Virus record (IMG/VR): IMGVR_UViG_3300025108_000022
Location: 1 to 64,000 of that record
Reading direction: 5' to 3' (one strand)
Source of the DNA: a virus
Length of the DNA stretch: 64,000 nt
This document shows positions 9,415-22,500 of the stretch, piece by piece (position 1 is the first letter of the stretch; every line of letters begins with the position of its first letter). Under the pieces are notes generated by a model. It did not search any database, was not told the origin of the DNA, and worked only from the letters and a program-made list of their open reading frames with translations. Made by a program: the position numbers and the translations under genes.

Positions 9415-10986
9415 TTATCGTGGGCCAGCCTTGCGTGATGAAATCACATCATCAATGCGGAGAATCATGGTCGCTGTTTCAACAGCCGACTTCAATGCCT
9501 GTGCCACAACACGCTTTGGCTCATATACACCGGCTTCACCCATGTGCATGACGCCACCAGCCAATACATTGACACCGTGATGATGGTTTCCTTCGGCATG
9601 TGCCTTGCGTAGTGCCATCATTTCATCAACAGGGTCAAGACCGCCGTTTTCAGCAAGTGTTCGTGGAATGACCTCAAGTGCCTGTGAGAAAGCCTCCAAA
9701 GCCATGCGGTCACGACCACCGATAGTGAGAGCGTGATTAGCGAGATCCCTGCTTAGAGAAGCATAGATTGACCCGCCACCAGTGAGAACTTCGCCGTCTT
9801 CATAGGCAACAGCCACTACACCGACCGCATCGTCAAATGCTCGTTCAATTTCTTCAACGAATGGTGCTGTGCCGCCTCGCAGAAGCAAGGTGACAGCCGA
9901 AGAGTTCGGTGTGGAGAAGAAAGACATTGGCAATTCGCCCACTTTCTTTTCCGTGAGGCTTTCACAGGAACCAAGAGCCTCTTCAATATCCTCAAGGTTG
10001 TTGATGATGCCCGCACCCGTAGCACGGGAAAGTGCCTCCATGTCGGAACGCTTGACCTTTTCAAGCCCAAAGACGCCAGCCTTTGACAAATAATGCTTGG
10101 CGAGGTCGTCAATTCCCTTTTGACAAACGACAACGGTTGCACCGCTGTCAACAATTGCTTTGACAAGTTCACGGATGTAGCCTTCTTCTTGCTCTAAGAA
10201 AGCAGTGATTTGGCTCGGATCAGTGATTTGAATGTTGGCGTCCATTTCAGTGGACTTCACTTCAAGGGGGAAATCAATGAGAAGCACTTTTCCGTTGGAA
10301 ATGCCCGCTGGCATCCCGCTGTGCGCTCGCTCTTTATCAACGATAATGCCGCTGATGAGTTCGCTGTCATGTGCGTCGCCACCAATAGCCTTCACCACAT
10401 TGATTTGAGTTAGATCAACAGCCCCGTTTTGGGCAAGTGCCTCCACTGTATCAACGCAAATACCACCGAGGTGGTCTTTGATTGAAGCAGATGATTTGCC
10501 AGTGAGTGCTGTGGTTGCGATAGCAAGTAAGCGATCTTCGGTTTTTTCGGCATAAGCGTCCAATTTACCTGCTATGAACTGCCCTCCTTCACGGAATGCC
10601 GAACAAATCGTGGTCGGGTGGATGTTTTGGGTGATGAGTTCTTCGGACTTCTTGAGAAGTTCGCCGGAAAGAACAACCGCACTGGTTGTCCCATCGTAGC
10701 ATTCTTGCTCTTGAGTCTTTGCGACTTCAATAATCATCTTCGCCGCAGGGTGATCGATGTCCATTTCACCGAGGATGGTTGCTCCGTCGTTGGTGATGAT
10801 AACATCGCCACCTTCGTCAACGAGCATTTTGTCCATGCCTTTCGGGCCGAGAGTGCTTCGCACTGCGTCAGCGACCGCTTTTGCGGCGGCGATGTTGTTT
10901 GACTGTGCCACTCGTCCGTGGCTTCGCTCGGTTCCTTCTTTGAGAATGAAGATTGGTTGCTGTCCGTTTGGCATCATGTTGCTCAA
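9415..10986 (-). CDS. ths: Group II chaperonin (thermosome subunit)
   Basis: [53 protein letters not shown] and ILRIDDVI motifs. The start may be ATG 10977. Confidence 0.96.
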
Positions 10987-13075: not shown

Positions 13076-14163
13076 TGGTTGAGCCTTTTGACATCGCAGG
13101 TTTGAAAGCCAATCCCGACTGGATGCGAGGTAAAGCAATACCCGGTTATGTCAAACACCCCGGAAACAAAAACAAACCTCACTACAACACTCTTGGTCGG
13201 TATGCCGCCCAACAAGCAGGAACCACAGGTATTCAAGACCCTGCAAGCGGGCCGGGTGGCTTCATTCAAGGTATTTTGCCCGAAGGGACGAGCCAAATGA
13301 ACGAATGGGATGTCGGCCTCCATAACTTGACACAACAAGTGAAGCAGGGTGGGTTCACTGTCCCATTTGACGAAGGGCCGATGGATAAACAGCGTTGGAT
13401 GGACGACATACGAGGAACCACCATATCGCAAATCAATTTGGGGAACTTGCCAAATCAAGGTTCACTGAACAACACTCTCCATCGTTTGCGACAAGGCTTG
13501 GACTGGAATGACATGACTCCCGAAGAAAAAGTGGCTTTTGCGAGGATTTACTACAAAAACAAGAAAACTGGTCGGCAAGGAGGCATAAGAGCCGGAACTG
13601 GCTACAACAACAACACTGCTGGTTCACTCCGTCCTTTCAATGTGGGACAGGTGGACGACCTATCACATTACGCCCCTTTGTTTGCTGACACTGAATTGAG
13701 GCAAGGTGATGCCACAGAAGCCTTACGAGAATGGGATGTGGACACCGACAAATTGTTGACTTCGGATCCGCCCTATGAAGGAGAACCTTCAACCTATTCG
13801 GGGAACTTTGCACTACAAGGCTATTTGCGAGAATTACAAGAACGCTTAGAAGAAGGACAGCCAATGATTGCCTTTGACAGTGCCGAAGTCGCTCCATTGT
13901 ATGCCGACATCGGACTTGAACCGCAAATTATGAATCGGCCCGACAACACAGCACCAACAGGGAAACACCGAGGAATAAAACCGGAAATGGTTGCTTTTGG
14001 GAACATTGAGGGCTTAGAACCTCTTGAACTCTTGAGTCGTTTCGGTCATAACAAATATGCACCCGATTCAAAGCAACAGTCCGAATTATTGGACTTTGAA
14101 CTCTCCGAACCCCAAAATGCCTTTGAACATGGGTGGGCTGTGCTGAAACAGGAGGAACACTGA
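13072..14163 (+). CDS. Dam-like (D12-class) amino-DNA methyltransferase homolog with a C-terminal tag copy
   Basis: KHPGNK (motif X-like), DPASGPGG (motif I-like) and SDPPY at 13765 followed by Y..NF. C-terminal NAFEHGWAVLK. Confidence 0.7.
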   Translation: MMVEPFDIAGLKANPDWMRGKAIPGYVKHPGNKNKPHYNTLGRYAAQQAGTTGIQDPASGPGGFIQGILPEGTSQMNEWDVGLHNLTQQVKQGGFTVPFDEGPMDKQRWMDDIRGTTISQINLGNLPNQGSLNNTLHRLRQGLDWNDMTPEEKVAFARIYYKNKKTGRQGGIRAGTGYNNNTAGSLRPFNVGQVDDLSHYAPLFADTELRQGDATEALREWDVDTDKLLTSDPPYEGEPSTYSGNFALQGYLRELQERLEEGQPMIAFDSAEVAPLYADIGLEPQIMNRPDNTAPTGKHRGIKPEMVAFGNIEGLEPLELLSRFGHNKYAPDSKQQSELLDFELSEPQNAFEHGWAVLKQEEH

Positions 14164-16205
14164 TGGCGGCACCTTTTGACTGGAAACGAACGAGGGCTGG
14201 TGAGAAACACATAGGTCTTGGGAATACCCCGAAGGACGACTCCATATCCACTTTCCGCAACATAAGTCAAGCCAGTCCCGGTCGTGATTTGCGTTTGCCT
14301 CCTGCACTACGCCCACTTCACTTCGATCAGTTCCCATCAGATCCAAAAGACCCAACACGAAGAGGGCCGGGTATGGTTGCAGTTCAAAGAAGATTGGTCG
14401 GCAGTGACGGCAAATCAAAAGGAAAACACAGTGTTGAAGCGGCGACTCAAGTTCCTTTACTTGACCCGATGGTGTCAATTGACAGGACAGCCCAACAAGA
14501 CGCTTGGCACGGAAACAAAGCATACAGGGGAGAAATACAAGGAACTCCGAGGGCACCGGGCAGGACGCTTCACGCACCCATCAGTGGCACTTTGCCAATA
14601 TCGGAGTCCCAACAATACCTCATGGGTGATGCTTTGCCCGAAGATGTTCACGATTATGATGTTGAACTTGATAACAACGGAAACGCAAGAGTCCTTGACG
14701 AAGAAGGACAGCAAGCGGATTTGGTGACATACCGCCCGTTCTTTTACGATTCGCAAGGCAATATCGTTTATCGGGACGACACTGCTGTGATGGAACCCGA
14801 AGATCATAAACAATTGGATATTCACCCCCTGTTTGGACGAAGAACAAAGACGCAAACCGAACACATGGGTCGCCCTCTCCCTCACCAAATTACAGGAACG
14901 GGCGACTTCGTTATGTTCCCAGCAGGGCCAGTCGGTGAAATGGCCGAACCTATACCCATCAGTCAAGGAACACGGTTTGCAGGAAACACTGGTGTCGTGA
15001 CCCCTCACGGCATGTATTTTCCTAAAAACATTGACTGGACGAATGTTCAACGAGCCGAAGGGCTGGCTGAACTTGGTGCTGTTCTCATTAAGGCAATTTC
15101 AAGCGATCCCGACGATTGGGAGAAAATGTATGATTGGGACACCAACCTCGGTGGCGGTTTTCCGTCAGCGAAAGAAAGTGGAACAAAAAGAACGGGCGGT
15201 GGCGGTTTTCAAGAGATTGCTGATTGGGTCGCCAACAATCCCGACCAAATGCGTGCGGCTATTGGAGGCCGTGGTGCAAAGGCGAGAAAGGTGGATTGGC
15301 CGTTAAAAGGTCGTCAAATCGCTGAATGGGACGACATAATGGAGGACGAAGGTGTCCCCGAAATTGACAGGCTGGATGAAGCCCTCAAAACACATTATGG
15401 GTATGGGAGAGCAAAAGCCATGCCCGGTCTTTCAATTCTTGACACTTCTCCACTTGCTTGCCCTTATTCAACACCGGAAGACCCGCTTAGTGCGTGCGGC
15501 AATTGTTATGCGTGCAAAAATCATTTCCTTTTCAACAATGCTCAAAACAACATGTGGGGCAGAACACGAATGTTGCATAATGACCCAATGCGCTTGGCTT
15601 CGGCTTACAAAGAGTCACTGTCCCCAATGTCGGCTCAATACAAAATGACAAGGAGAAGCCGACCACCCGTGAGAGGTAAAGTCAGTGGTGATTTGACACC
15701 GGGTGAATTGTCAATGCTTGCTGACATTATGGAACAACAACCTGATCATGACAAGCAAGACCTTTGGCTTGCTTCAAGGCAATATCCCACGATTAAGAAC
15801 TTCTTAGATGCAAGAGGATGGGATGATTGGAACCCCGATAATATCCGACTCCGCCTTTCAATGCCCGGAAAGAAAACACATAACGATTTGCCCGGTGGGG
15901 ATTTAATTTCGGAATTGCTCACCCATCCCAATGTCGTGCCCTCGTCTTATGACACCGTTGCTCCGGGCTATGTCATTTGCCCGAAAACCGAAAAAGGCAA
16001 CACACCGCAGTGCAATTCAAACATAGATCCATTAACGGGACAAAAGGGTTGCAGGGCTTGTTGGAGCGATAAGCCGGTTGTTTATGGGCACCATGACGGC
16101 AAGCCTTCAAGGGTATTTTCACCCGAAGAAAAAGCGATGGGTCAAATGGAGTCAAGCCACAATACCCCGACTAATACTCGTCGTTTGCCGATGTTTAGGG
16201 AATAG
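14163..16205 (+). CDS. Two-part protein with a C-terminal phage Gp88-like Cys-rich domain
   Basis: Start ATG 14163. Junction GAVLIKA. CP...SACGNCYA, VRGKVSGD, WLASR, PDNIRLRLS and CP...CRACW...VYGHH. Confidence 0.6.
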   Translation: MAAPFDWKRTRAGEKHIGLGNTPKDDSISTFRNISQASPGRDLRLPPALRPLHFDQFPSDPKDPTRRGPGMVAVQRRLVGSDGKSKGKHSVEAATQVPLLDPMVSIDRTAQQDAWHGNKAYRGEIQGTPRAPGRTLHAPISGTLPISESQQYLMGDALPEDVHDYDVELDNNGNARVLDEEGQQADLVTYRPFFYDSQGNIVYRDDTAVMEPEDHKQLDIHPLFGRRTKTQTEHMGRPLPHQITGTGDFVMFPAGPVGEMAEPIPISQGTRFAGNTGVVTPHGMYFPKNIDWTNVQRAEGLAELGAVLIKAISSDPDDWEKMYDWDTNLGGGFPSAKESGTKRTGGGGFQEIADWVANNPDQMRAAIGGRGAKARKVDWPLKGRQIAEWDDIMEDEGVPEIDRLDEALKTHYGYGRAKAMPGLSILDTSPLACPYSTPEDPLSACGNCYACKNHFLFNNAQNNMWGRTRMLHNDPMRLASAYKESLSPMSAQYKMTRRSRPPVRGKVSGDLTPGELSMLADIMEQQPDHDKQDLWLASRQYPTIKNFLDARGWDDWNPDNIRLRLSMPGKKTHNDLPGGDLISELLTHPNVVPSSYDTVAPGYVICPKTEKGNTPQCNSNIDPLTGQKGCRACWSDKPVVYGHHDGKPSRVFSPEEKAMGQMESSHNTPTNTRRLPMFRE

Positions 16206-16774: not shown

Positions 16775-16918
16775 ATGAGCCGTCATGTGTCAGTCGTGAT
16801 GCCCGATGAATTGTTCGCTGAAATGGAAGCGGCAAGGGGCCGAGAATCAAAATCCTCATTCGTTTGCCACATATTGAAAGAGTTCTTCAAAAACCGACAA
16901 AAAGGAGATGATGAATAA
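16775..16918 (+). CDS. Ribbon-helix-helix (CopG/Arc-like) DNA-binding protein
   Basis: Not in the ORF track. MSRHVSVVMPDELFAEMEAARGRESKSSFVCHILKEFFKNRQKGDDE. TAATG overlap with the next gene. Confidence 0.8.
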   Translation: MSRHVSVVMPDELFAEMEAARGRESKSSFVCHILKEFFKNRQKGDDE

Positions 16919-17394
16919 TGCAACAGCCAATAGTGCCGCAACCACAACGAATACCACCGTGGGCAGGAGGGGACGACAATAACCGGATCGACATCAATTT
17001 GATAGCCATGCTTCTATGGCAATCACTTTTGACTGGGGTTTCAGTCACAGTGTCGCATTTGGACTGGTATTTGCCGGACGCTTCACCGGGTGAAATGGGA
17101 CTTCAATACGGTCTTATTGCATTCGGTTTCCTATGTGTCGCTATGGTTCTGTTTCATGTTGGGGGCATTCGTGACTCCCTTGCCCTTCGTGCCGAGTTCT
17201 CTCAAGAAGGACGCCATGACAAATGGCTCCGCAATCAACAAAGACTACAACAACGCCGCATGAGAAAGGACTACAACATGGCTCAAGAGGCTCAAATGTA
17301 TAAGCAACAGGCTTGGCAACAGGTCGATCCGAATCAGCAAACTTTCGGCTTACCGAACACCGAAGAATCCAATAACGACAAAAATAACGAATAG
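16918..17394 (+). CDS. Membrane protein (2 TM segments plus Gln/Arg-rich helical tail)
   Basis: Hydrophobic segments INLIAMLLWQSLLTGVSVTV and YGLIAFGFLCVAMVLFHVGG. Confidence 0.75.
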   Translation: MQQPIVPQPQRIPPWAGGDDNNRIDINLIAMLLWQSLLTGVSVTVSHLDWYLPDASPGEMGLQYGLIAFGFLCVAMVLFHVGGIRDSLALRAEFSQEGRHDKWLRNQQRLQQRRMRKDYNMAQEAQMYKQQAWQQVDPNQQTFGLPNTEESNNDKNNE

Positions 17395-17630
17395 TGTGGT
17401 GGGACATGATGTGGCCTTTCAATACCGCACAGGAAAGACAAGCGGAGGCCATGTCGGCTATTCTCGCTGAAAACGCATACGATAGAAGGATGGAGCGAGC
17501 CGCTTGGACTGTGAAATCCATACTTGCCTTTGTTGGGGGAATCGCTCTCACTTTCTTTGTTTTGCTGGGCTTGGATATTTGGCTTGAGATCAACCCGACT
17601 TCTGTTTGGAACTGGATTCGGGGGAAGTGA
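17394..17630 (+). CDS. Small single-pass membrane protein
   Basis: SILAFVGGIALTFFVLLGLDIW. Coupled to neighbouring genes. Confidence 0.7.
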   Translation: MWWDMMWPFNTAQERQAEAMSAILAENAYDRRMERAAWTVKSILAFVGGIALTFFVLLGLDIWLEINPTSVWNWIRGK

Positions 17631-17635
17631 GGTGA

Positions 17636-18364
17636 ATGGCAACATGGATGCTTGCTGGACACATATTGATGGGTTCGGCCCAATTAGCGGCCTATGTGTA
17701 TCGGCTGATTAGACCACATAAAATCGGCATATTCGGCCCATCGTTGGCTGGCAAAACCACCCTCGATCAATACTTGACAGTTCCGGGGGACATCGATCCG
17801 ATACCCGTTGAATTGAGAACCACGCATCCTGTGAAGAACGGTGCCTTTCAAACCCCCCACGCAACCAAAAAACAAGTGCGGTGGAAAGGGGAAAAGACAC
17901 CAATAATGACAGCCGACATCGGGGGACAATCCCAATACTGGAACCTGTGGGCCGAAGACATGATTGAGCGAAACACAAGCGTGGTTTTCTTTGTTGTTGA
18001 CGACCGTGTTGGTTGGTCGCAACCAGCCATGCAAGAAGCCGTTGCCGGTTTCAAATACCTCACCGATATTATCGTCAATCATAGGTTTCCCAGCACTTTC
18101 TCACGAAGCATGAAGAAAAAAGCAAAAAAATACAAACCAAAGGTCGTTTGCTTAGTTCTCAACAAAATGGATCTGTGGTGGACAAACGAGTCCCAGCAGA
18201 TGTGGGATATGGGTTTGCGTCGTCAACACCCGATGGTGATGCCTTTTCAAGAAGATATGCGGAGGCTTAGAAAATCCGCAGTGGCGACAAATGTTGAGGC
18301 TATGGCGGCTCAATACGGGCTGAATGTGGAGGGTGCCGTGATAAGGACACTTAACATGATTTAG
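17636..18364 (+). CDS. Arf/Sar-like small GTPase (Ras superfamily)
   Basis: G1 GPSLAGKTT, G3 DIGGQSQYWNLW, VFFVVD, G4 LNKMD and G5-like AMAA. Hydrophobic/amphipathic N-terminal extension. Confidence 0.88.
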   Translation: MATWMLAGHILMGSAQLAAYVYRLIRPHKIGIFGPSLAGKTTLDQYLTVPGDIDPIPVELRTTHPVKNGAFQTPHATKKQVRWKGEKTPIMTADIGGQSQYWNLWAEDMIERNTSVVFFVVDDRVGWSQPAMQEAVAGFKYLTDIIVNHRFPSTFSRSMKKKAKKYKPKVVCLVLNKMDLWWTNESQQMWDMGLRRQHPMVMPFQEDMRRLRKSAVATNVEAMAAQYGLNVEGAVIRTLNMI

Positions 18365-18417
18365 GCCGCAACCCTTTTCATGTTGTCAGTCCTCACAGGG
18401 TCAAGGGGGAGTTATGA

Positions 18418-19326
18418 GTGAGGTTCAACCCATTCGGCAACGGCGGCATTTCATTGAACGGTTTAACCGATGATGAATTGAAAATGCTGGCTGTTCAAAC
18501 AGGCGTTTCATACAACATGTTGAAAACCCAACAGCGGGCTGAAATGGCGAGTGCTGGATCGACTGGTGGAGTGGAGGGAGAATCCCTTATCCCAACAGTG
18601 GAACTTAAACTCGTCACCAACACCAAAAACCCACGAAAGGCTCGCAAAAAGAACATCAAGAAAATGCGTAAAGCCCTTCGTCCACCAAACTACAATTTGG
18701 GTCTTTTCAAGGTATATCGCTACAACGCCGCACATGAGTGCGCTTGCTGTGGTGTTGATGTGCGCCGTTTCCTTGAAGGCGACAACGCATACAATCACAT
18801 TGTTGATGAAAAGACAGGGTTGTCGTTGGCTGACATTTATTGGTTTGATGAAGACACTGGACAGGCACGAAAGCCTCTTGCCCGCACACACGGTGATCAC
18901 GGCGACGAAATGAACAGCACGCTTTGTCCAGCACATTTGCACATTTACCACACCTTGAGGTGTATGGTTGATGAACACGAATTAGCCGAAGAAGGATTTG
19001 GCAAAGTGGTCGCAAAAGGAACTCGTTTCTTGAAAGTTCCCGGTTTGAGCAAGTCGCAAAGTAAAAATCGTTCAACCCCCGAATCATTGGCGAAGTATGC
19101 ACAGTTCTTTCAAATGATTCAAAAAGACGCCCAATACTCAAAAGGAGTAGTCCTTAATCAGCACACCAACCCAATAACAGGGGTTGCGGATTTGGTGACA
19201 GTGACCTTTGATATGCGAGCCATGCAAATGGAACAAATGGCGCAACAACAATCTATGATGGGTGTTTCCCCTCAAGACATGCAAGGCACTATGGTGCCCC
19301 AAGAGCCGATGGTGGCGCAACAATAA
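18418..19326 (+). CDS. Hypothetical protein with putative Zn-binding residues
   Basis: HECACCG...LCPAHLH. Basic patch and Gln/Met-rich tail. Confidence 0.7.
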   Translation: MRFNPFGNGGISLNGLTDDELKMLAVQTGVSYNMLKTQQRAEMASAGSTGGVEGESLIPTVELKLVTNTKNPRKARKKNIKKMRKALRPPNYNLGLFKVYRYNAAHECACCGVDVRRFLEGDNAYNHIVDEKTGLSLADIYWFDEDTGQARKPLARTHGDHGDEMNSTLCPAHLHIYHTLRCMVDEHELAEEGFGKVVAKGTRFLKVPGLSKSQSKNRSTPESLAKYAQFFQMIQKDAQYSKGVVLNQHTNPITGVADLVTVTFDMRAMQMEQMAQQQSMMGVSPQDMQGTMVPQEPMVAQQ

Positions 19327-19339
19327 ACAGGTGAATAAT

Positions 19340-20005
19340 ATGGGACTTTTTGGATTTGGAGGAAATAAACCGGCAACGACACAACAATTCGGTGCCCCCT
19401 CTTTGGCCGCACAGCAAAACCAATTTGGTGGGATGCAAGGCTATGGGATGCAACAACCCCAGCAAATGGGTGCTATGGGAATGATGCAACAAGCACAGAA
19501 TCCCATGATGCAACAAGCCGCTTCAGATCCTATTCTCGCAACCTCTCAATTGTTGTCAATGTATGACCCAGTGTCAGCATTTATTGTCACCCAAAACCTC
19601 CCGCTAATGCTGGACTTGATTGGTGAAATCGTGCAATTGTCGCTCAAAGAGTTCTTCAACAATGTTCAATTCAGCGTTGATGAAGGCAAAATGAAATTAG
19701 ACACTGGTTCAATGCCTCAAACCCTCCAAACACTTTCGCCGGAAAACCTTGCTTTGACACTACAAAAGGCTCAAGGTGCCGCACAGAATGTGCTGAACCA
19801 AAACCAACAACAATTACAGATGTTCCTTGCGGCACACCAGCAAGGAATGATGATGAGCAACATGCAAGGGGCACAACAACCGGGATTCTTCGGAAGCCTT
19901 CTCGGAGGAATGATGGGCAACGCTGTTCAAAATCAAGGCGGTTTCGGAGCAACGATGGGGCAAGGCGTGAATATGGCCGCTAAGGCGGCACCATTAGGAC
20001 TGTGA
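19340..20005 (+). CDS. Gln/Met/Gly-rich low-complexity protein
   Basis: ATG 19340 follows GGTGA. A helical core is flanked by QMG-rich segments. Confidence 0.75.
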   Translation: MGLFGFGGNKPATTQQFGAPSLAAQQNQFGGMQGYGMQQPQQMGAMGMMQQAQNPMMQQAASDPILATSQLLSMYDPVSAFIVTQNLPLMLDLIGEIVQLSLKEFFNNVQFSVDEGKMKLDTGSMPQTLQTLSPENLALTLQKAQGAAQNVLNQNQQQLQMFLAAHQQGMMMSNMQGAQQPGFFGSLLGGMMGNAVQNQGGFGATMGQGVNMAAKAAPLGL

Positions 20006-20009
20006 TAAC

Positions 20010-20264
20010 ATGGGGAAGGAAGACGAACAAGCAATTAGCGGAGAGGTTTCGTGGTCGTCGGCCACGATTGATATTTTGAGTCCAAAGAAATTATTGGTGG
20101 AAAGTGCAACGATGATCTATATCATCGCCTTCATTCTTTTCTCCCTCGTCATTTTGGTTTGGAAAGGCCCAGCGTTGGGAACCAGCGCAGTGATGGCTAT
20201 GTTCTTCGGTTTGATTCTCACTGGCACTATCGCCATCCGTCAATACGCATCCTTTCGCTATTGA
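20010..20264 (+). CDS. Small 2-TM membrane protein (holin-like topology)
   Basis: MIYIIAFILFSLVILVW and AVMAMFFGLILTGTIAI. Confidence 0.7.
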   Translation: MGKEDEQAISGEVSWSSATIDILSPKKLLVESATMIYIIAFILFSLVILVWKGPALGTSAVMAMFFGLILTGTIAIRQYASFRY

Positions 20265-20304
20265 TGGGCGCAGGTATTCCGTCCCGCATTCACAGGCGTA
20301 TGAT

Positions 20305-20445
20305 GTGAAACCTCCCCCTCCCACAGTCGTTCAGCACAAATCACCGAAGTGTGCGGCTAAGAAAAAAGACGGTTCGCCGTGTAAAAACCGACCGATGCTT
20401 GATAGCGACTTTTGCGGTGTCCATCGCCGTAAGAATGAAAAGTGA
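20305..20445 (+). CDS. Small C3H zinc-finger-like ORF (start uncertain)
   Basis: Not in the track. PPPPTVVQHKSPKCAAKKKDGSPCKNRPMLDSDFCGVHRRKNEK. Confidence 0.6.
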   Translation: MKPPPPTVVQHKSPKCAAKKKDGSPCKNRPMLDSDFCGVHRRKNEK

Positions 20446-20472: not shown

Positions 20473-21183
20473 ATGACGGGGAGGCGTGTTCGCAGGAATT
20501 GTCCTTTTTGTCAAGACGACAGGCGTGATCAATGGGAACAACAAATCCGCATTGGATTGCTTGAACCCGCCGAATTAGATTTGACCCATGACTGGCCCGA
20601 AGGCACTGCACATCGCCACATGAGAAGGCATTCCGGCGAGTATCATAACAATAGCAATACAGAATGTCCTCTATGCACTCATCCCGAAAGAGCCAACATT
20701 GAACACGCTGTCCTTGAGCGTCTTGTCAGTATGGACGACATGGCGACTGAATTGGACATAAGCGAAGAGGCTCTTGCTCAACACATGGAAAATCACACTC
20801 AACCTATCATTCAACGACAGGTCAACATGGAGATTATGCCCGCCGCCATTGACAGCGCACGCACGGCCATGCAACAAAGTGAGCGAAACCTCCAACGACT
20901 TAATGGACTCTTTAACGACCACTTGGATCTGATGCAAGAGGAACGGATGGAGTCGGGGACACTTGACTACAAGGGATTAGACACCGCAGTAAAACTGCAC
21001 CGTGAAGTCCGTGATTCATTGACCGAGATTGGCGAGTGGCTGGAAAAGGCCGAGGCCGTTGGTGGCAACGAACAGGTCAGCGTCTTGACAGTCATACAAG
21101 CACACTTCTCCGAAAAGTCGCCCGAAGAGTGGCGAGTCATGCGTAAGGCGTTAGCCGAAGCGGGGGTGCTTGAAGATGGCTAA
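20473..21183 (+). CDS. Putative DNA-binding protein with two CxxC...HxxxH units plus coiled coil (terminase small subunit candidate)
   Basis: CPFC...HRHMRRH and CPLC...QHMENH. Helical C-terminus. Confidence 0.5.
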   Translation: MTGRRVRRNCPFCQDDRRDQWEQQIRIGLLEPAELDLTHDWPEGTAHRHMRRHSGEYHNNSNTECPLCTHPERANIEHAVLERLVSMDDMATELDISEEALAQHMENHTQPIIQRQVNMEIMPAAIDSARTAMQQSERNLQRLNGLFNDHLDLMQEERMESGTLDYKGLDTAVKLHREVRDSLTEIGEWLEKAEAVGGNEQVSVLTVIQAHFSEKSPEEWRVMRKALAEAGVLEDG

Positions 21184-21589: not shown

Positions 21590-22012
21590 ATGGATGAAAG
21601 AGGCTATCAAACAATCCCAGCGTTGATGTTGAAGCACACCGAATACGCTGAACTATTGCACGGCAACAGCGACATTTTTACAATGTGTGAAGCACTGCAA
21701 ATGTGCGACGCACTTGAAGAAGTCGTCGGGGTGTGGAAAGAAGGTCTTGACGCATTTGGCCTCACATCCCAAGAGGATTGCTCAAGTGAAGCATTAGGCG
21801 CAATCATGCTCATGCGTATGGGCTTTCACGATCTCAAGAAGGCTTTGCCCGAAGTTCCCCGTGAAGAAGCCGACGAACTTTTGCGAGCCGTAGCAAGGGC
21901 GTTCCTGCCTTTGGCTCAATCATACTCCAAGACACCAATGTTGGCGCAGTGGTATATGGGACTCCCTATACTCGTTGCCGAAACATACAACCGCTTGAGG
22001 GGGCAACGATAA
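21590..22012 (+). CDS. Hypothetical helical protein
   Basis: 140-aa ORF with a GGAGGG SD, coupled to the next gene. Confidence 0.7.
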   Translation: MDERGYQTIPALMLKHTEYAELLHGNSDIFTMCEALQMCDALEEVVGVWKEGLDAFGLTSQEDCSSEALGAIMLMRMGFHDLKKALPEVPREEADELLRAVARAFLPLAQSYSKTPMLAQWYMGLPILVAETYNRLRGQR

Positions 22013-22500
22013 TGCAAGCAATAGGAAGAAACGCATTTTTAGCAGGACTTGAGTTCATCAAAGAAGATCCATGTTGGGACGGCTACGAGCAAGTCGGCAT
22101 GAAAAATAAGGGAGGGCGTGAAGTGCCGAACTGTGTCCCAGCGAGCAAGAAAATACCGGACAGCAAAAAGAAAAGTAAAGTGAAGAAGTCAATTTGCTCT
22201 TGTCCCGAATGCCACATGATGGCTAAGGCACTTCTCACCAAAGAAAGCGACAAACCCTTTCACGGCTACAATCCAAACAAACACAGCCGCAAAGGCGGAT
22301 TGAACGCTAAAGGCCGTGCAAAGGCCAAGCGTGAAGAAGGAGCAAACCTCAAACCACCAGTCACCGAAAAGAACCCGACTGGCAAAAAGAAGGCACGAAA
22401 GAAGTCCTTCTGTGCCCGTATGGGTGGTGTCAAAGGGCCGACCAGCAAAGGCGGCAAAAAGACACCAAAGGGTGCCGCACTTGATAGGTGGAATTGCTAA
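22012..22500 (+). CDS. Basic tagged protein with short phage modules (putative internal head protein)
   Basis: NAFLAGLEFIK tag. PCWDGYEQVGMK..GGREVPNCVP and KGGLNAKGR...RKKSFCARM are modules I recognise from marine phage proteins. Confidence 0.65.
   Translation: MQAIGRNAFLAGLEFIKEDPCWDGYEQVGMKNKGGREVPNCVPASKKIPDSKKKSKVKKSICSCPECHMMAKALLTKESDKPFHGYNPNKHSRKGGLNAKGRAKAKREEGANLKPPVTEKNPTGKKKARKKSFCARMGGVKGPTSKGGKKTPKGAALDRWNC

Follow-up and report, generated by a model that had tools for sequence, protein, structure and literature searches.

What does a small GTPase do in the genome of a tailed archaeal virus, and why do genes for membrane proteins stand on both sides of it? We address this question for a gene block at positions 16775 to 20445 of a 64,000-nt stretch of the IMG/VR virus record IMGVR_UViG_3300025108_000022. 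This whole stretch is referred to as the window, and all coordinates are positions in it. The block, here called the cassette, encodes the GTPase together with a regulator-like protein, three small membrane proteins, two soluble orphan proteins and an accessory mini-protein. The cassette is a conserved core block of magrovirus-type tailed viruses, and its GTPase resembles the Arf family; we propose that the encoded proteins may bring about a GTP-switched change of the host membrane. In the magrovirus literature that we searched, we found no mention of a GTPase and no paper describing the gene block.

A conserved gene block of magrovirus-type viruses

The cassette consists of eight open reading frames (ORFs) on the plus strand, which are tightly packed with spacers of -1 to 53 nt; an oligo-T run was sought in the intergenic spacers and none was found. 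In order, the ORFs encode a regulator-like protein (RHH47), a protein with two transmembrane (TM) segments (TM158), a single-pass protein (TM78), the GTPase, an orphan Cys/His protein (Zn302), a Gln/Met/Gly/Asn-rich protein (QM222), a second two-TM protein (TM84) and a Lys-rich Cys/His mini-protein (Zn46). The right-hand neighbour of the cassette is a protein named p236.

Synteny was assessed by tblastn and blastp searches of each window protein against 62 IMG/VR viral loci. RHH47, TM158, TM78, Zn302, QM222, TM84 and p236 are found at fixed offsets from the GTPase in 52 to 62 of these loci, and the full set of these proteins is present in unchanged order on 53 of the 62 related viral contigs, a conservation of the gene run far beyond chance. 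In the eight most divergent loci, where the GTPase identity falls to 36 to 39%, the small membrane proteins are no longer recognisable by similarity. The ORF maps of four of these eight loci show a membrane protein, an 80-aa single-pass protein, the GTPase, Zn302, a Q-rich protein, a multi-TM protein of about 80 aa and p236, with the TM84 position in the divergent loci being filled by a similar multi-TM protein of 77 to 89 aa. The original prediction for this DNA, which was made from the sequence of the window, had described a closely packed run of genes; all of the ORFs that it listed are found on the plus strand, their order is kept in relatives, and the linkage of the GTPase to the membrane genes, which that prediction presupposed for related viruses, is strict.

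The GTPase has few relatives. A profile search against 1.84 billion representative proteins returned only 83 proteins at E ≤0.001, no homologue was found in 40 other Poseidoniales genomes, and tblastn gave no match to 50,697 GenBank phage records. Across these searches, the GTPase family is virus-restricted.

The window also encodes TerL, portal, a prohead protease and a group II chaperonin (thermosome). The thermosome is a full-length Cpn60_TCP1 protein (9415-10986, minus strand, E = 1.4e-162), whose neighbours lie on the other strand. Thermosome genes mark groups A and D of the magroviruses, which are tailed viruses of Marine Group II and rank among the most abundant ocean viruses (PMC5434244). 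Homologues of the GTPase sit on marine contigs of 90 to 108 kb, many of them from Tara samples, and one cassette-bearing contig of 106 kb belongs to the Candidatus Poseidoniales single-cell genome AG-422-I20, being direct evidence for Poseidoniales as the host. The window represents a magrovirus-type tailed archaeal virus (order Magrovirales) of Poseidoniales, the abundant Marine Group II archaea of the ocean, an assignment that rests on TerL, portal and protease, the thermosome, the relatives of about 100 kb and the Poseidoniales link, not on a phylogeny of the major capsid protein or DNA polymerase. The cassette was also found on an 8-kb contig binned as a Parvibaculum metagenome-assembled genome; this contig is probably viral and mis-binned.

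Within the genome, the packaging and head genes follow downstream of the cassette and share its strand, and the replication and cargo genes are found on its other side.

Affinities of the GTPase

The motifs of the GTPase (17636-18364, plus strand, 242 aa) are GPSLAGKTT (G1), IPVELRTT (switch I), DIGGQSQYWNLW (G3), VFFVVD, NKMD (G4) and AAQ (G5), and they include every one of those named in the original prediction (GPSLAGKTT, DIGGQSQYWNLW, VFFVVD and NKMD). An alignment of 30 homologues shows as invariant the P-loop GxxxxGKTT, T62 in switch I, D94 and G97 in G3, N176, K177 and D179 in G4, and Q226 in G5. The G1 motif GxxxxGKTT, DxxG and NKxD are kept in all 62 loci and the G5 pattern S/A-A/S-Q in 54, while the residue following DxxG varies, being Gln in 43 loci, Asp in 13, Glu in 3 and His in 3. 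The family consensus for G3 is DIGGQxQFRNLW, where the window sequence DIGGQSQYWNLW has Trp in place of Arg (YWNLW in the window's clade). A Lys-rich insert, SRSMKKKAKKYKPK (residues 150-168), precedes G4, and the spacer between G4 and G5 is longer than usual.

The AlphaFold2 (AF2) model of the protein has a mean predicted local distance difference test (pLDDT) score of 73 and is confident from about residue 100 on. The Foldseek search with this model gives Ras-superfamily small GTPases, pointing to a Ras-superfamily fold. The hydrophobic N-terminal helix of the original prediction is present as the uncharged residues 2-22, and AF2 places a helix at residues 2-25 with low pLDDT. Over residues 2-22, the Eisenberg hydrophobicity has a mean of 0.36 and a moment of 0.26 in 30 family members (0.38 and 0.25 in the window protein), compared with a mean of about 0 for the polar segment at the equivalent position of ArvA, the archaeal vesiculation GTPase. 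The Kyte-Doolittle 19-residue maximum of the N-terminus ranges from 0.7 to 1.6, with a mean of 1.16, the TM cut-off being 1.6. The stretch thus fits better with a membrane-inserting helix than with a true anchor.

For comparison with the Arf family we used eukaryotic Arf, Arl8, Arl6 and Sar1 as well as the Asgard GerdArfR1 structures 8OUN and 8OUM (bioRxiv 10.1101/2024.02.28.582541; PMC11914678). Like these proteins, the viral GTPase appears to have a small Ras-superfamily G domain with a G3 motif of the DxGGQxxxRxLW type and NKxD, and an N-terminal helix directly ahead of strand beta-1, which aligns with the amphipathic helix of GerdArfR1. The best match of the family profile in the PDB is GerdArfR1 (PDB ID 8OUN, E = 5.3e-6), in an alignment that begins within the N-terminal helix and pairs the two helix regions, followed by 8OUM, Arl10C/Arl8A/Arl8B and Arl6; no Era, Der, MglA or SR-beta chain is among the PDB profile matches at E ≤1. 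The nearest non-viral clusters of the ESM Atlas are likewise Arf-family proteins, and the Arf family comes out as the nearest cellular relative by profile, Pfam counts, language-model features and tree. The viral GTPase differs from Arf proteins in being about 60 residues longer, with the Lys-rich insert before G4 and the long G4-G5 spacer, in having a longer and more hydrophobic N-terminal helix that lacks Gly2, and in carrying Trp for the conserved Arg in the window's clade. It is furthermore virus-encoded and comes without a recognisable GTPase-activating protein, guanine nucleotide exchange factor or coat.

The Pfam scores are low throughout. The window protein matches MMR_HSR1 with 20.5 bits (threshold 21.9) and Arf (Pfam ID PF00025) with 14.8 bits (E = 0.021, threshold 22.3). 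No Pfam family is matched by more members than Arf (17 of 30, all sub-threshold, best E = 1.4e-4), and SRPRB (Pfam ID PF09439) is matched by 4 of the 30, with E values from 0.021 upwards. Among the full-length profile matches, the most distant ones, P0156, P0169 and P0173, exceed the Pfam Arf threshold; SRPRB is the second-best Pfam family for P0156 and P0173, and the JGI label of P0173 is SR-beta. With SR-beta, the membrane-anchored GTPase of the SRP receptor, the viral protein shares an Arf-like G domain and, ahead of it, a hydrophobic stretch at the N-terminus. Unlike in SR-beta, this stretch stays below the usual TM threshold, there is no SR-alpha-like partner, and within the 30 family members the SRPRB matches are confined to the four mentioned.

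A second affinity is to ArvA, whose sequences were drawn from Thermoplasmatota genomes through the neighbouring gene OapB. The region from G1 to switch I (GIYGPxxxGKTTL ... IPxExR) is clearly similar in the viral GTPase and ArvA, with a probability of 95% and E = 2.4e-8 in hhalign, over only 40 aligned columns. The hidden Markov model scores are 15 to 19 bits against ArvA versus 29 bits against Asgard Arf, and the G3 motif of ArvA is DTPG, in contrast to DIGGQ..W in the virus. The N-terminal helix of ArvA is also polar and basic, unlike the viral one. In a quick maximum-likelihood tree, the viral family groups with P0156 and P0173, whereas ArvA, Rab-like and KaiC-fused archaeal GTPases and P0169 lie on the opposite side of a branch with a Shimodaira-Hasegawa-like approximate likelihood ratio (SH-aLRT) support of 93. 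The Pfam Arf model, when run on Thermoplasmatota genomes, mostly found KaiC-fused and Rab-like GTPases and also matched E. coli and other controls; it gave no clean Arf reference set, and the tree was therefore built without eukaryotic references and is indicative only. The KaiC-fused proteins are a separate observation: these Thermoplasmatota proteins of about 390 aa (L076-L086) combine a KaiC/RecA-like N-terminal part with a C-terminal small-GTPase domain scoring 55 to 63 bits on Pfam Arf.

The Arf/Sar-like label of the original prediction holds in so far as the nearest known relatives are Arf and Arl proteins, including Asgard Arf, and as the tree places the viral family with Arf-positive proteins and apart from ArvA. 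It does not extend to family membership: because of the sub-threshold Pfam Arf score and the ArvA-like stretch from G1 to switch I, 'Arf-like' stands here for a resemblance. We interpret the protein as a putative new, virus-restricted and very divergent family that falls into the Arf-like section of the Ras superfamily and resembles ArvA between G1 and switch I.

Partner proteins and control elements

According to Kyte-Doolittle windows, TM158 has two membrane segments, TM78 one and TM84 two, and none is found in the GTPase or the other cassette proteins. TM158 (16918-17394, plus strand, 158 aa, present in 53 loci) has hydrophobic segments at about residues 28-46 and 60-85, followed by a C-terminal tail of about 70 aa that is basic, rich in Gln and closed by a conserved FG. 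The loop between the segments is acidic and has no Lys or Arg, and the tail has 11 Lys/Arg residues; both ends of the protein are predicted to be cytoplasmic. TM78 (17409-17630, plus strand, 73 aa, in 54 loci) begins with a conserved soluble helix, MWPFxTxQERQAEAMSxILAENAYER, in which W2, P3, F4, E9, R10, Q11, L19, A20, E21, N22 and Y24 are invariant, and continues into its single TM segment. The ORF opens at a GTG at 17394, and we placed the start at MWPF (17409), where the orthologues begin. TM84 (20010-20264, plus strand, 84 aa, in 53 loci) consists of two adjacent hydrophobic segments with a conserved LVESATMI ... RQ(Y/F)A(S/A)FR end. Charge counts and the positive-inside rule suggest that the conserved soluble parts of all three membrane proteins face the cytoplasm.

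Zn302 (18418-19326, plus strand, 302 aa), whose GTG start agrees with the starts of its orthologues, is the best-conserved protein of the cassette, with a median identity of 65 to 75% versus 47 to 65% for the GTPase. The residues C108, C110, C111, C170, H173, H175 and H178 are invariant (E-C-x-C-C-G ... C-P-A-H-L-H-I-x-H), and the protein carries a Gln/Met-rich tail. No relative was found in Pfam, PHROGs, PDB profiles or the ESM Atlas, and a profile search of 5.8 billion proteins gave 160 homologues, all of them close, unnamed proteins of marine metagenomes. The AF2 model (pLDDT 47) is too poor for a fold search. We considered an HNH-like reading of the C...H-x-H-xx-H region and rejected it, as conservation is missing at the His and Asn that would be catalytic and no HNH family is matched.

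QM222 (19340-20005, plus strand, 221 aa, in 57 loci; its ORF opens at 19262) has low-complexity, FG-bearing ends around a conserved helical middle and contains six FG dipeptides. In the two ends (residues 1-65 and 151-221), 58% of the residues are Gln, Met, Gly or Asn, compared with 26% in the middle, and the tails of TM158 and Zn302 show a composition like that of these ends. In divergent clades (L052, L055, L057 and L059), the Gln-rich protein (19340-19360 in the window) starts with MVWPFSNN, an aromatic N-terminus shared with the MWPF of TM78 (17409-17420); in other clades, it starts with MGWFS or MGLFGF.

RHH47 (16775-16918, plus strand, 47 aa) is found in 52 of the 62 loci with identities of 33 to 79%. 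It shows a short strand (HVSVVM) followed by two helices, and this pattern is the one feature in favour of the ribbon-helix-helix (CopG/Arc/MetJ) label of the original prediction: the window protein has no match in Pfam and none among PDB profiles at E ≤10, and one of 17 orthologues matches VAPB_antitox weakly (E = 0.1). The Zn-binding label given to Zn302 fared similarly, as it draws on the invariant Cys and His residues and found no backing in homology.

Two elements resembling promoters or operators were found in the cassette. P1 (16729-16767, plus strand) lies ahead of RHH47 and consists of a TTTAATCAC box, a TATA-like CTTCATAG and a direct repeat, TTGACA-GGAG-TGGGA, ending 7 nt ahead of the ATG. 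Position and pattern are conserved across loci, with a TATA-like TTCATA(G) and a repeat TGWCA-N4/5-TGRSA whose end lies about 7 nt ahead of the ATG. P2 (18372-18397, plus strand) lies in the 53-nt spacer between the GTPase and Zn302 and combines a TATA-like CTTTTCATG with the direct repeat TTGTCA-GTCC-TCACA. A regular expression for the repeat matches the P1 site in 16 of 50 loci and the P2 site in 15 of 50, compared with 1.1% of random 45-mers, and finds no match ahead of TM158, TM78, the GTPase, QM222, p236 or p140. In one locus (L018), the P1 and P2 copies are identical across 23 nt; no further copy of the exact P1 sequence was found in the window at up to 3 mismatches. These observations suggest one shared promoter/operator class that would divide the cassette into two co-controlled transcription units.

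Extra DNA is found at the P2 site, between the GTPase and the Cys/His gene, in two loci: about 820 bp in L045 (6748-7640) and a 76-aa ORF in L059 (6647-6877). At 1191-1214 of the window, in non-coding DNA after a T-run and left of an HMGL-like gene, the sequence TTGTCAGTATTGACAGGACTGACA contains three TGWCA half-sites in a 9-bp phase. As the half-site is the same as in P1 and P2, this triple repeat may belong to the same regulon as the cassette elements.

The last gene of the cassette encodes Zn46 (20305-20445, plus strand, 46 aa), which is an accessory outside the conserved core, present in only 6 to 7 of the 62 loci, with weak, sub-threshold Pfam and PHROG matches; it lies within the range covered by the original prediction and was not named there. 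The neighbouring p236 (20473-21183, plus strand, 236 aa) is found in 61 of the 62 loci, and the most divergent loci are among them. The protein combines two CxxC pairs with a weak helix-turn-helix (HTH)-like middle and a helical C-terminal part, gives only weak HTH, GerE and DUF7367 signals, and is probably DNA-binding. Further to the right, a Lys-rich protein of 183 aa (21949-22500) has strong matches to a PHROG of unknown function (phrog_10346, E = 5e-20) and occurs in only 12 of the 62 related loci. To the left of the cassette, the C-terminal part of a 690-aa protein (14133-16205) exceeds the Pfam threshold for GP88 (Pfam ID PF17338) with 26.6 versus 24.4 bits.

Possible roles of the cassette

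In our reading, the cassette proteins would change the host membrane under the control of a GTP switch at a late stage of infection, most likely by breaching it for virus release; we give this reading a probability of about 45%. It is based on the combination of an Arf-like switch bearing a putative membrane-inserting helix with three co-inherited membrane proteins whose conserved parts would be cytoplasmic, on two soluble orphans that would suit effector or scaffold roles, on the position upstream of the packaging and head genes, and on the deep conservation of the block. Egress is proposed because head-tailed archaeal viruses are without any known egress system, the players having been called 'completely uncharacterized' in a 2024 review (PMC10791045).

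In the mechanism that we propose, RHH47 would control both transcription units. The GTPase in its GTP form would insert its N-terminal helix into the host membrane from the cytoplasmic face, assisted by the basic insert, and the membrane-bound protein would there meet the cytoplasm-facing conserved parts of TM158, TM78 and TM84. It would recruit or release Zn302 and QM222 as an effector or scaffold, and the outcome would be the switched change of the host membrane late in infection, most likely its breach for release.

A parallel in layout is offered by the phage lysis cassettes of holin, antiholin, endolysin and spanin, such as lambda S-R-Rz, with which the late operon begins. These cassettes likewise have several small virus-specific proteins with one or two TM segments and charged ends, lie upstream of packaging and head genes and have a control element of their own. 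To our knowledge, no known phage lysis cassette contains a GTPase. The Poseidoniales host is also without a peptidoglycan wall, unlike the hosts of phage lysis cassettes.

Several points weigh against a membrane breach for release. Unlike holin-endolysin cassettes, the viral block has no detectable endolysin, other lytic enzyme or known holin family in Pfam and PHROGs. The catalytic Gln is replaced in 19 of the 62 loci, a further difference from Arf proteins, and hydrolysis may therefore be slow or partner-supplied in those clades. The N-terminal helix is predicted at a pLDDT below 50, and in some clades Lys or Arg occurs at its positions 16-20, leaving the mode of membrane binding uncertain. 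The GTPase lies below the Pfam Arf gathering threshold, the regulator fold of RHH47 is taken from a sequence pattern, and the functions proposed for all of the cassette genes are read from sequence. The 'late' timing is deduced from gene position, with about 9 kb of genes without known function between the cassette and TerL. Finally, P1 and P2 of the same genome are no more alike than pairs from different genomes (a negative co-variation test), for which reason the elements may represent a promoter class in common use and not an operator specific to each genome.

A known system with some likeness in gene content is ArvA-ArvB-ArvC (OapABC), the archaeal vesiculation GTPase operon of Haloferax volcanii (PMC10927574). 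In both cases, a small GTPase of the archaeal world has an N-terminal helix (membrane action was seen for ArvA, and the viral side of the likeness is one of sequence), and its gene adjoins that of a Cys-rich partner, a Zn-ribbon protein in Arv, and another small partner. The viral GTPase might replace or supply an archaeal vesiculation GTPase and drive outward budding of host membrane, which would serve decoy vesicles, export or non-lytic spread, as ArvA drives vesicle formation in Haloferax with its Zn-ribbon partner ArvC (PMC10927574). The hhalign match to ArvA would agree with such a role, and so would the distribution of ArvB/OapB, which was found in none of 41 Poseidoniales genomes but in 74 of 151 genomes across the phylum; ArvABC may be missing from the host order, and the virus could therefore bring a function that the host lacks. 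The likeness to ArvA is nevertheless restricted to the short G1 to switch I stretch, with lower scores than for Asgard Arf, a different G3 motif and a separation in the indicative tree. No cassette protein matches ArvB (OapB, Pfam ID PF09846) or ArvC (DUF2072) at E ≤1, the viral cassette has membrane-protein genes, of which the ArvA operons have none, and non-enveloped tailed virions have no evident need for budding. We therefore consider ArvA-like budding improbable.

Other explanations keep the cassette inside the cell. Its proteins could form a platform for replication, head assembly or packaging on the inner membrane face, where the GTPase would switch the assembly and the low-complexity proteins would provide a scaffold or condensate. 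The location between the replication/cargo and the packaging/head genes on the same strand would suit a platform, as would the probably DNA-binding neighbour p236, a conservation equal to that of core genes, and the Gln/Met/Gly-rich composition with FG dipeptides of QM222 and the TM158 and Zn302 tails, which is compatible with multivalent self-association. The composition argument is a weak one, however, the searches of Pfam and PHROGs did not connect the cassette to scaffolding, portal or terminase-small-subunit families, and we know of no tailed prokaryotic virus that depends on a small GTPase to build a membrane platform, so that a platform seems unlikely. A host take-over or superinfection exclusion, in which the membrane proteins and the GTPase would alter transport, receptors or the envelope and thereby keep other viruses out or redirect the physiology of the host, is decidedly improbable. 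Small virus-specific membrane proteins are typical of phage exclusion systems, and a regulator-like gene and control element of its own would fit a separately timed programme; such genes are usually variable accessories, though, whereas the cassette is among the best-conserved parts of the genome across deep divergence, and seven co-conserved genes including two soluble orphans exceed the usual needs of such systems. The GTPase might even act away from the membrane, for example in ribosome or translation control like Era or Der, and adjoin the membrane genes by shared inheritance only. Its best single Pfam match, MMR_HSR1, points in this direction. The PDB profile matches are Arf, Arl and Rab chains, however, with none of the Era, Der or Obg type, G3 and the Trp following it are Arf-like, and the hydrophobic N-terminal helix and the unbroken linkage to the membrane genes argue for a shared function, making a non-membrane role highly improbable.

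A GTP-switched membrane change with release of the virus is thus the reading that we prefer. In its fullest form, magroviruses would encode a self-contained, GTP-timed machine for breaching or shaping membranes, made of an Arf-like switch with a membrane-inserting helix, three membrane proteins that serve as receptors or form pores, and a pair of orphan effectors; we put this forward as a tentative and rather doubtful proposal. If true, head-tailed archaeal viruses would thereby have their first known egress system, and the GTPase would represent an independent lineage of Arf-type membrane GTPases that is carried by viruses and lies outside eukaryotes and Asgard archaea. The cassette offers a concrete, clonable candidate for the egress of archaeal tailed viruses. 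A virus-specific Arf-like GTPase would also widen the known range of Arf-type switches and be relevant to ideas on their origin and spread. As magroviruses are among the most abundant ocean viruses, the mechanism of their release bears on marine carbon turnover.

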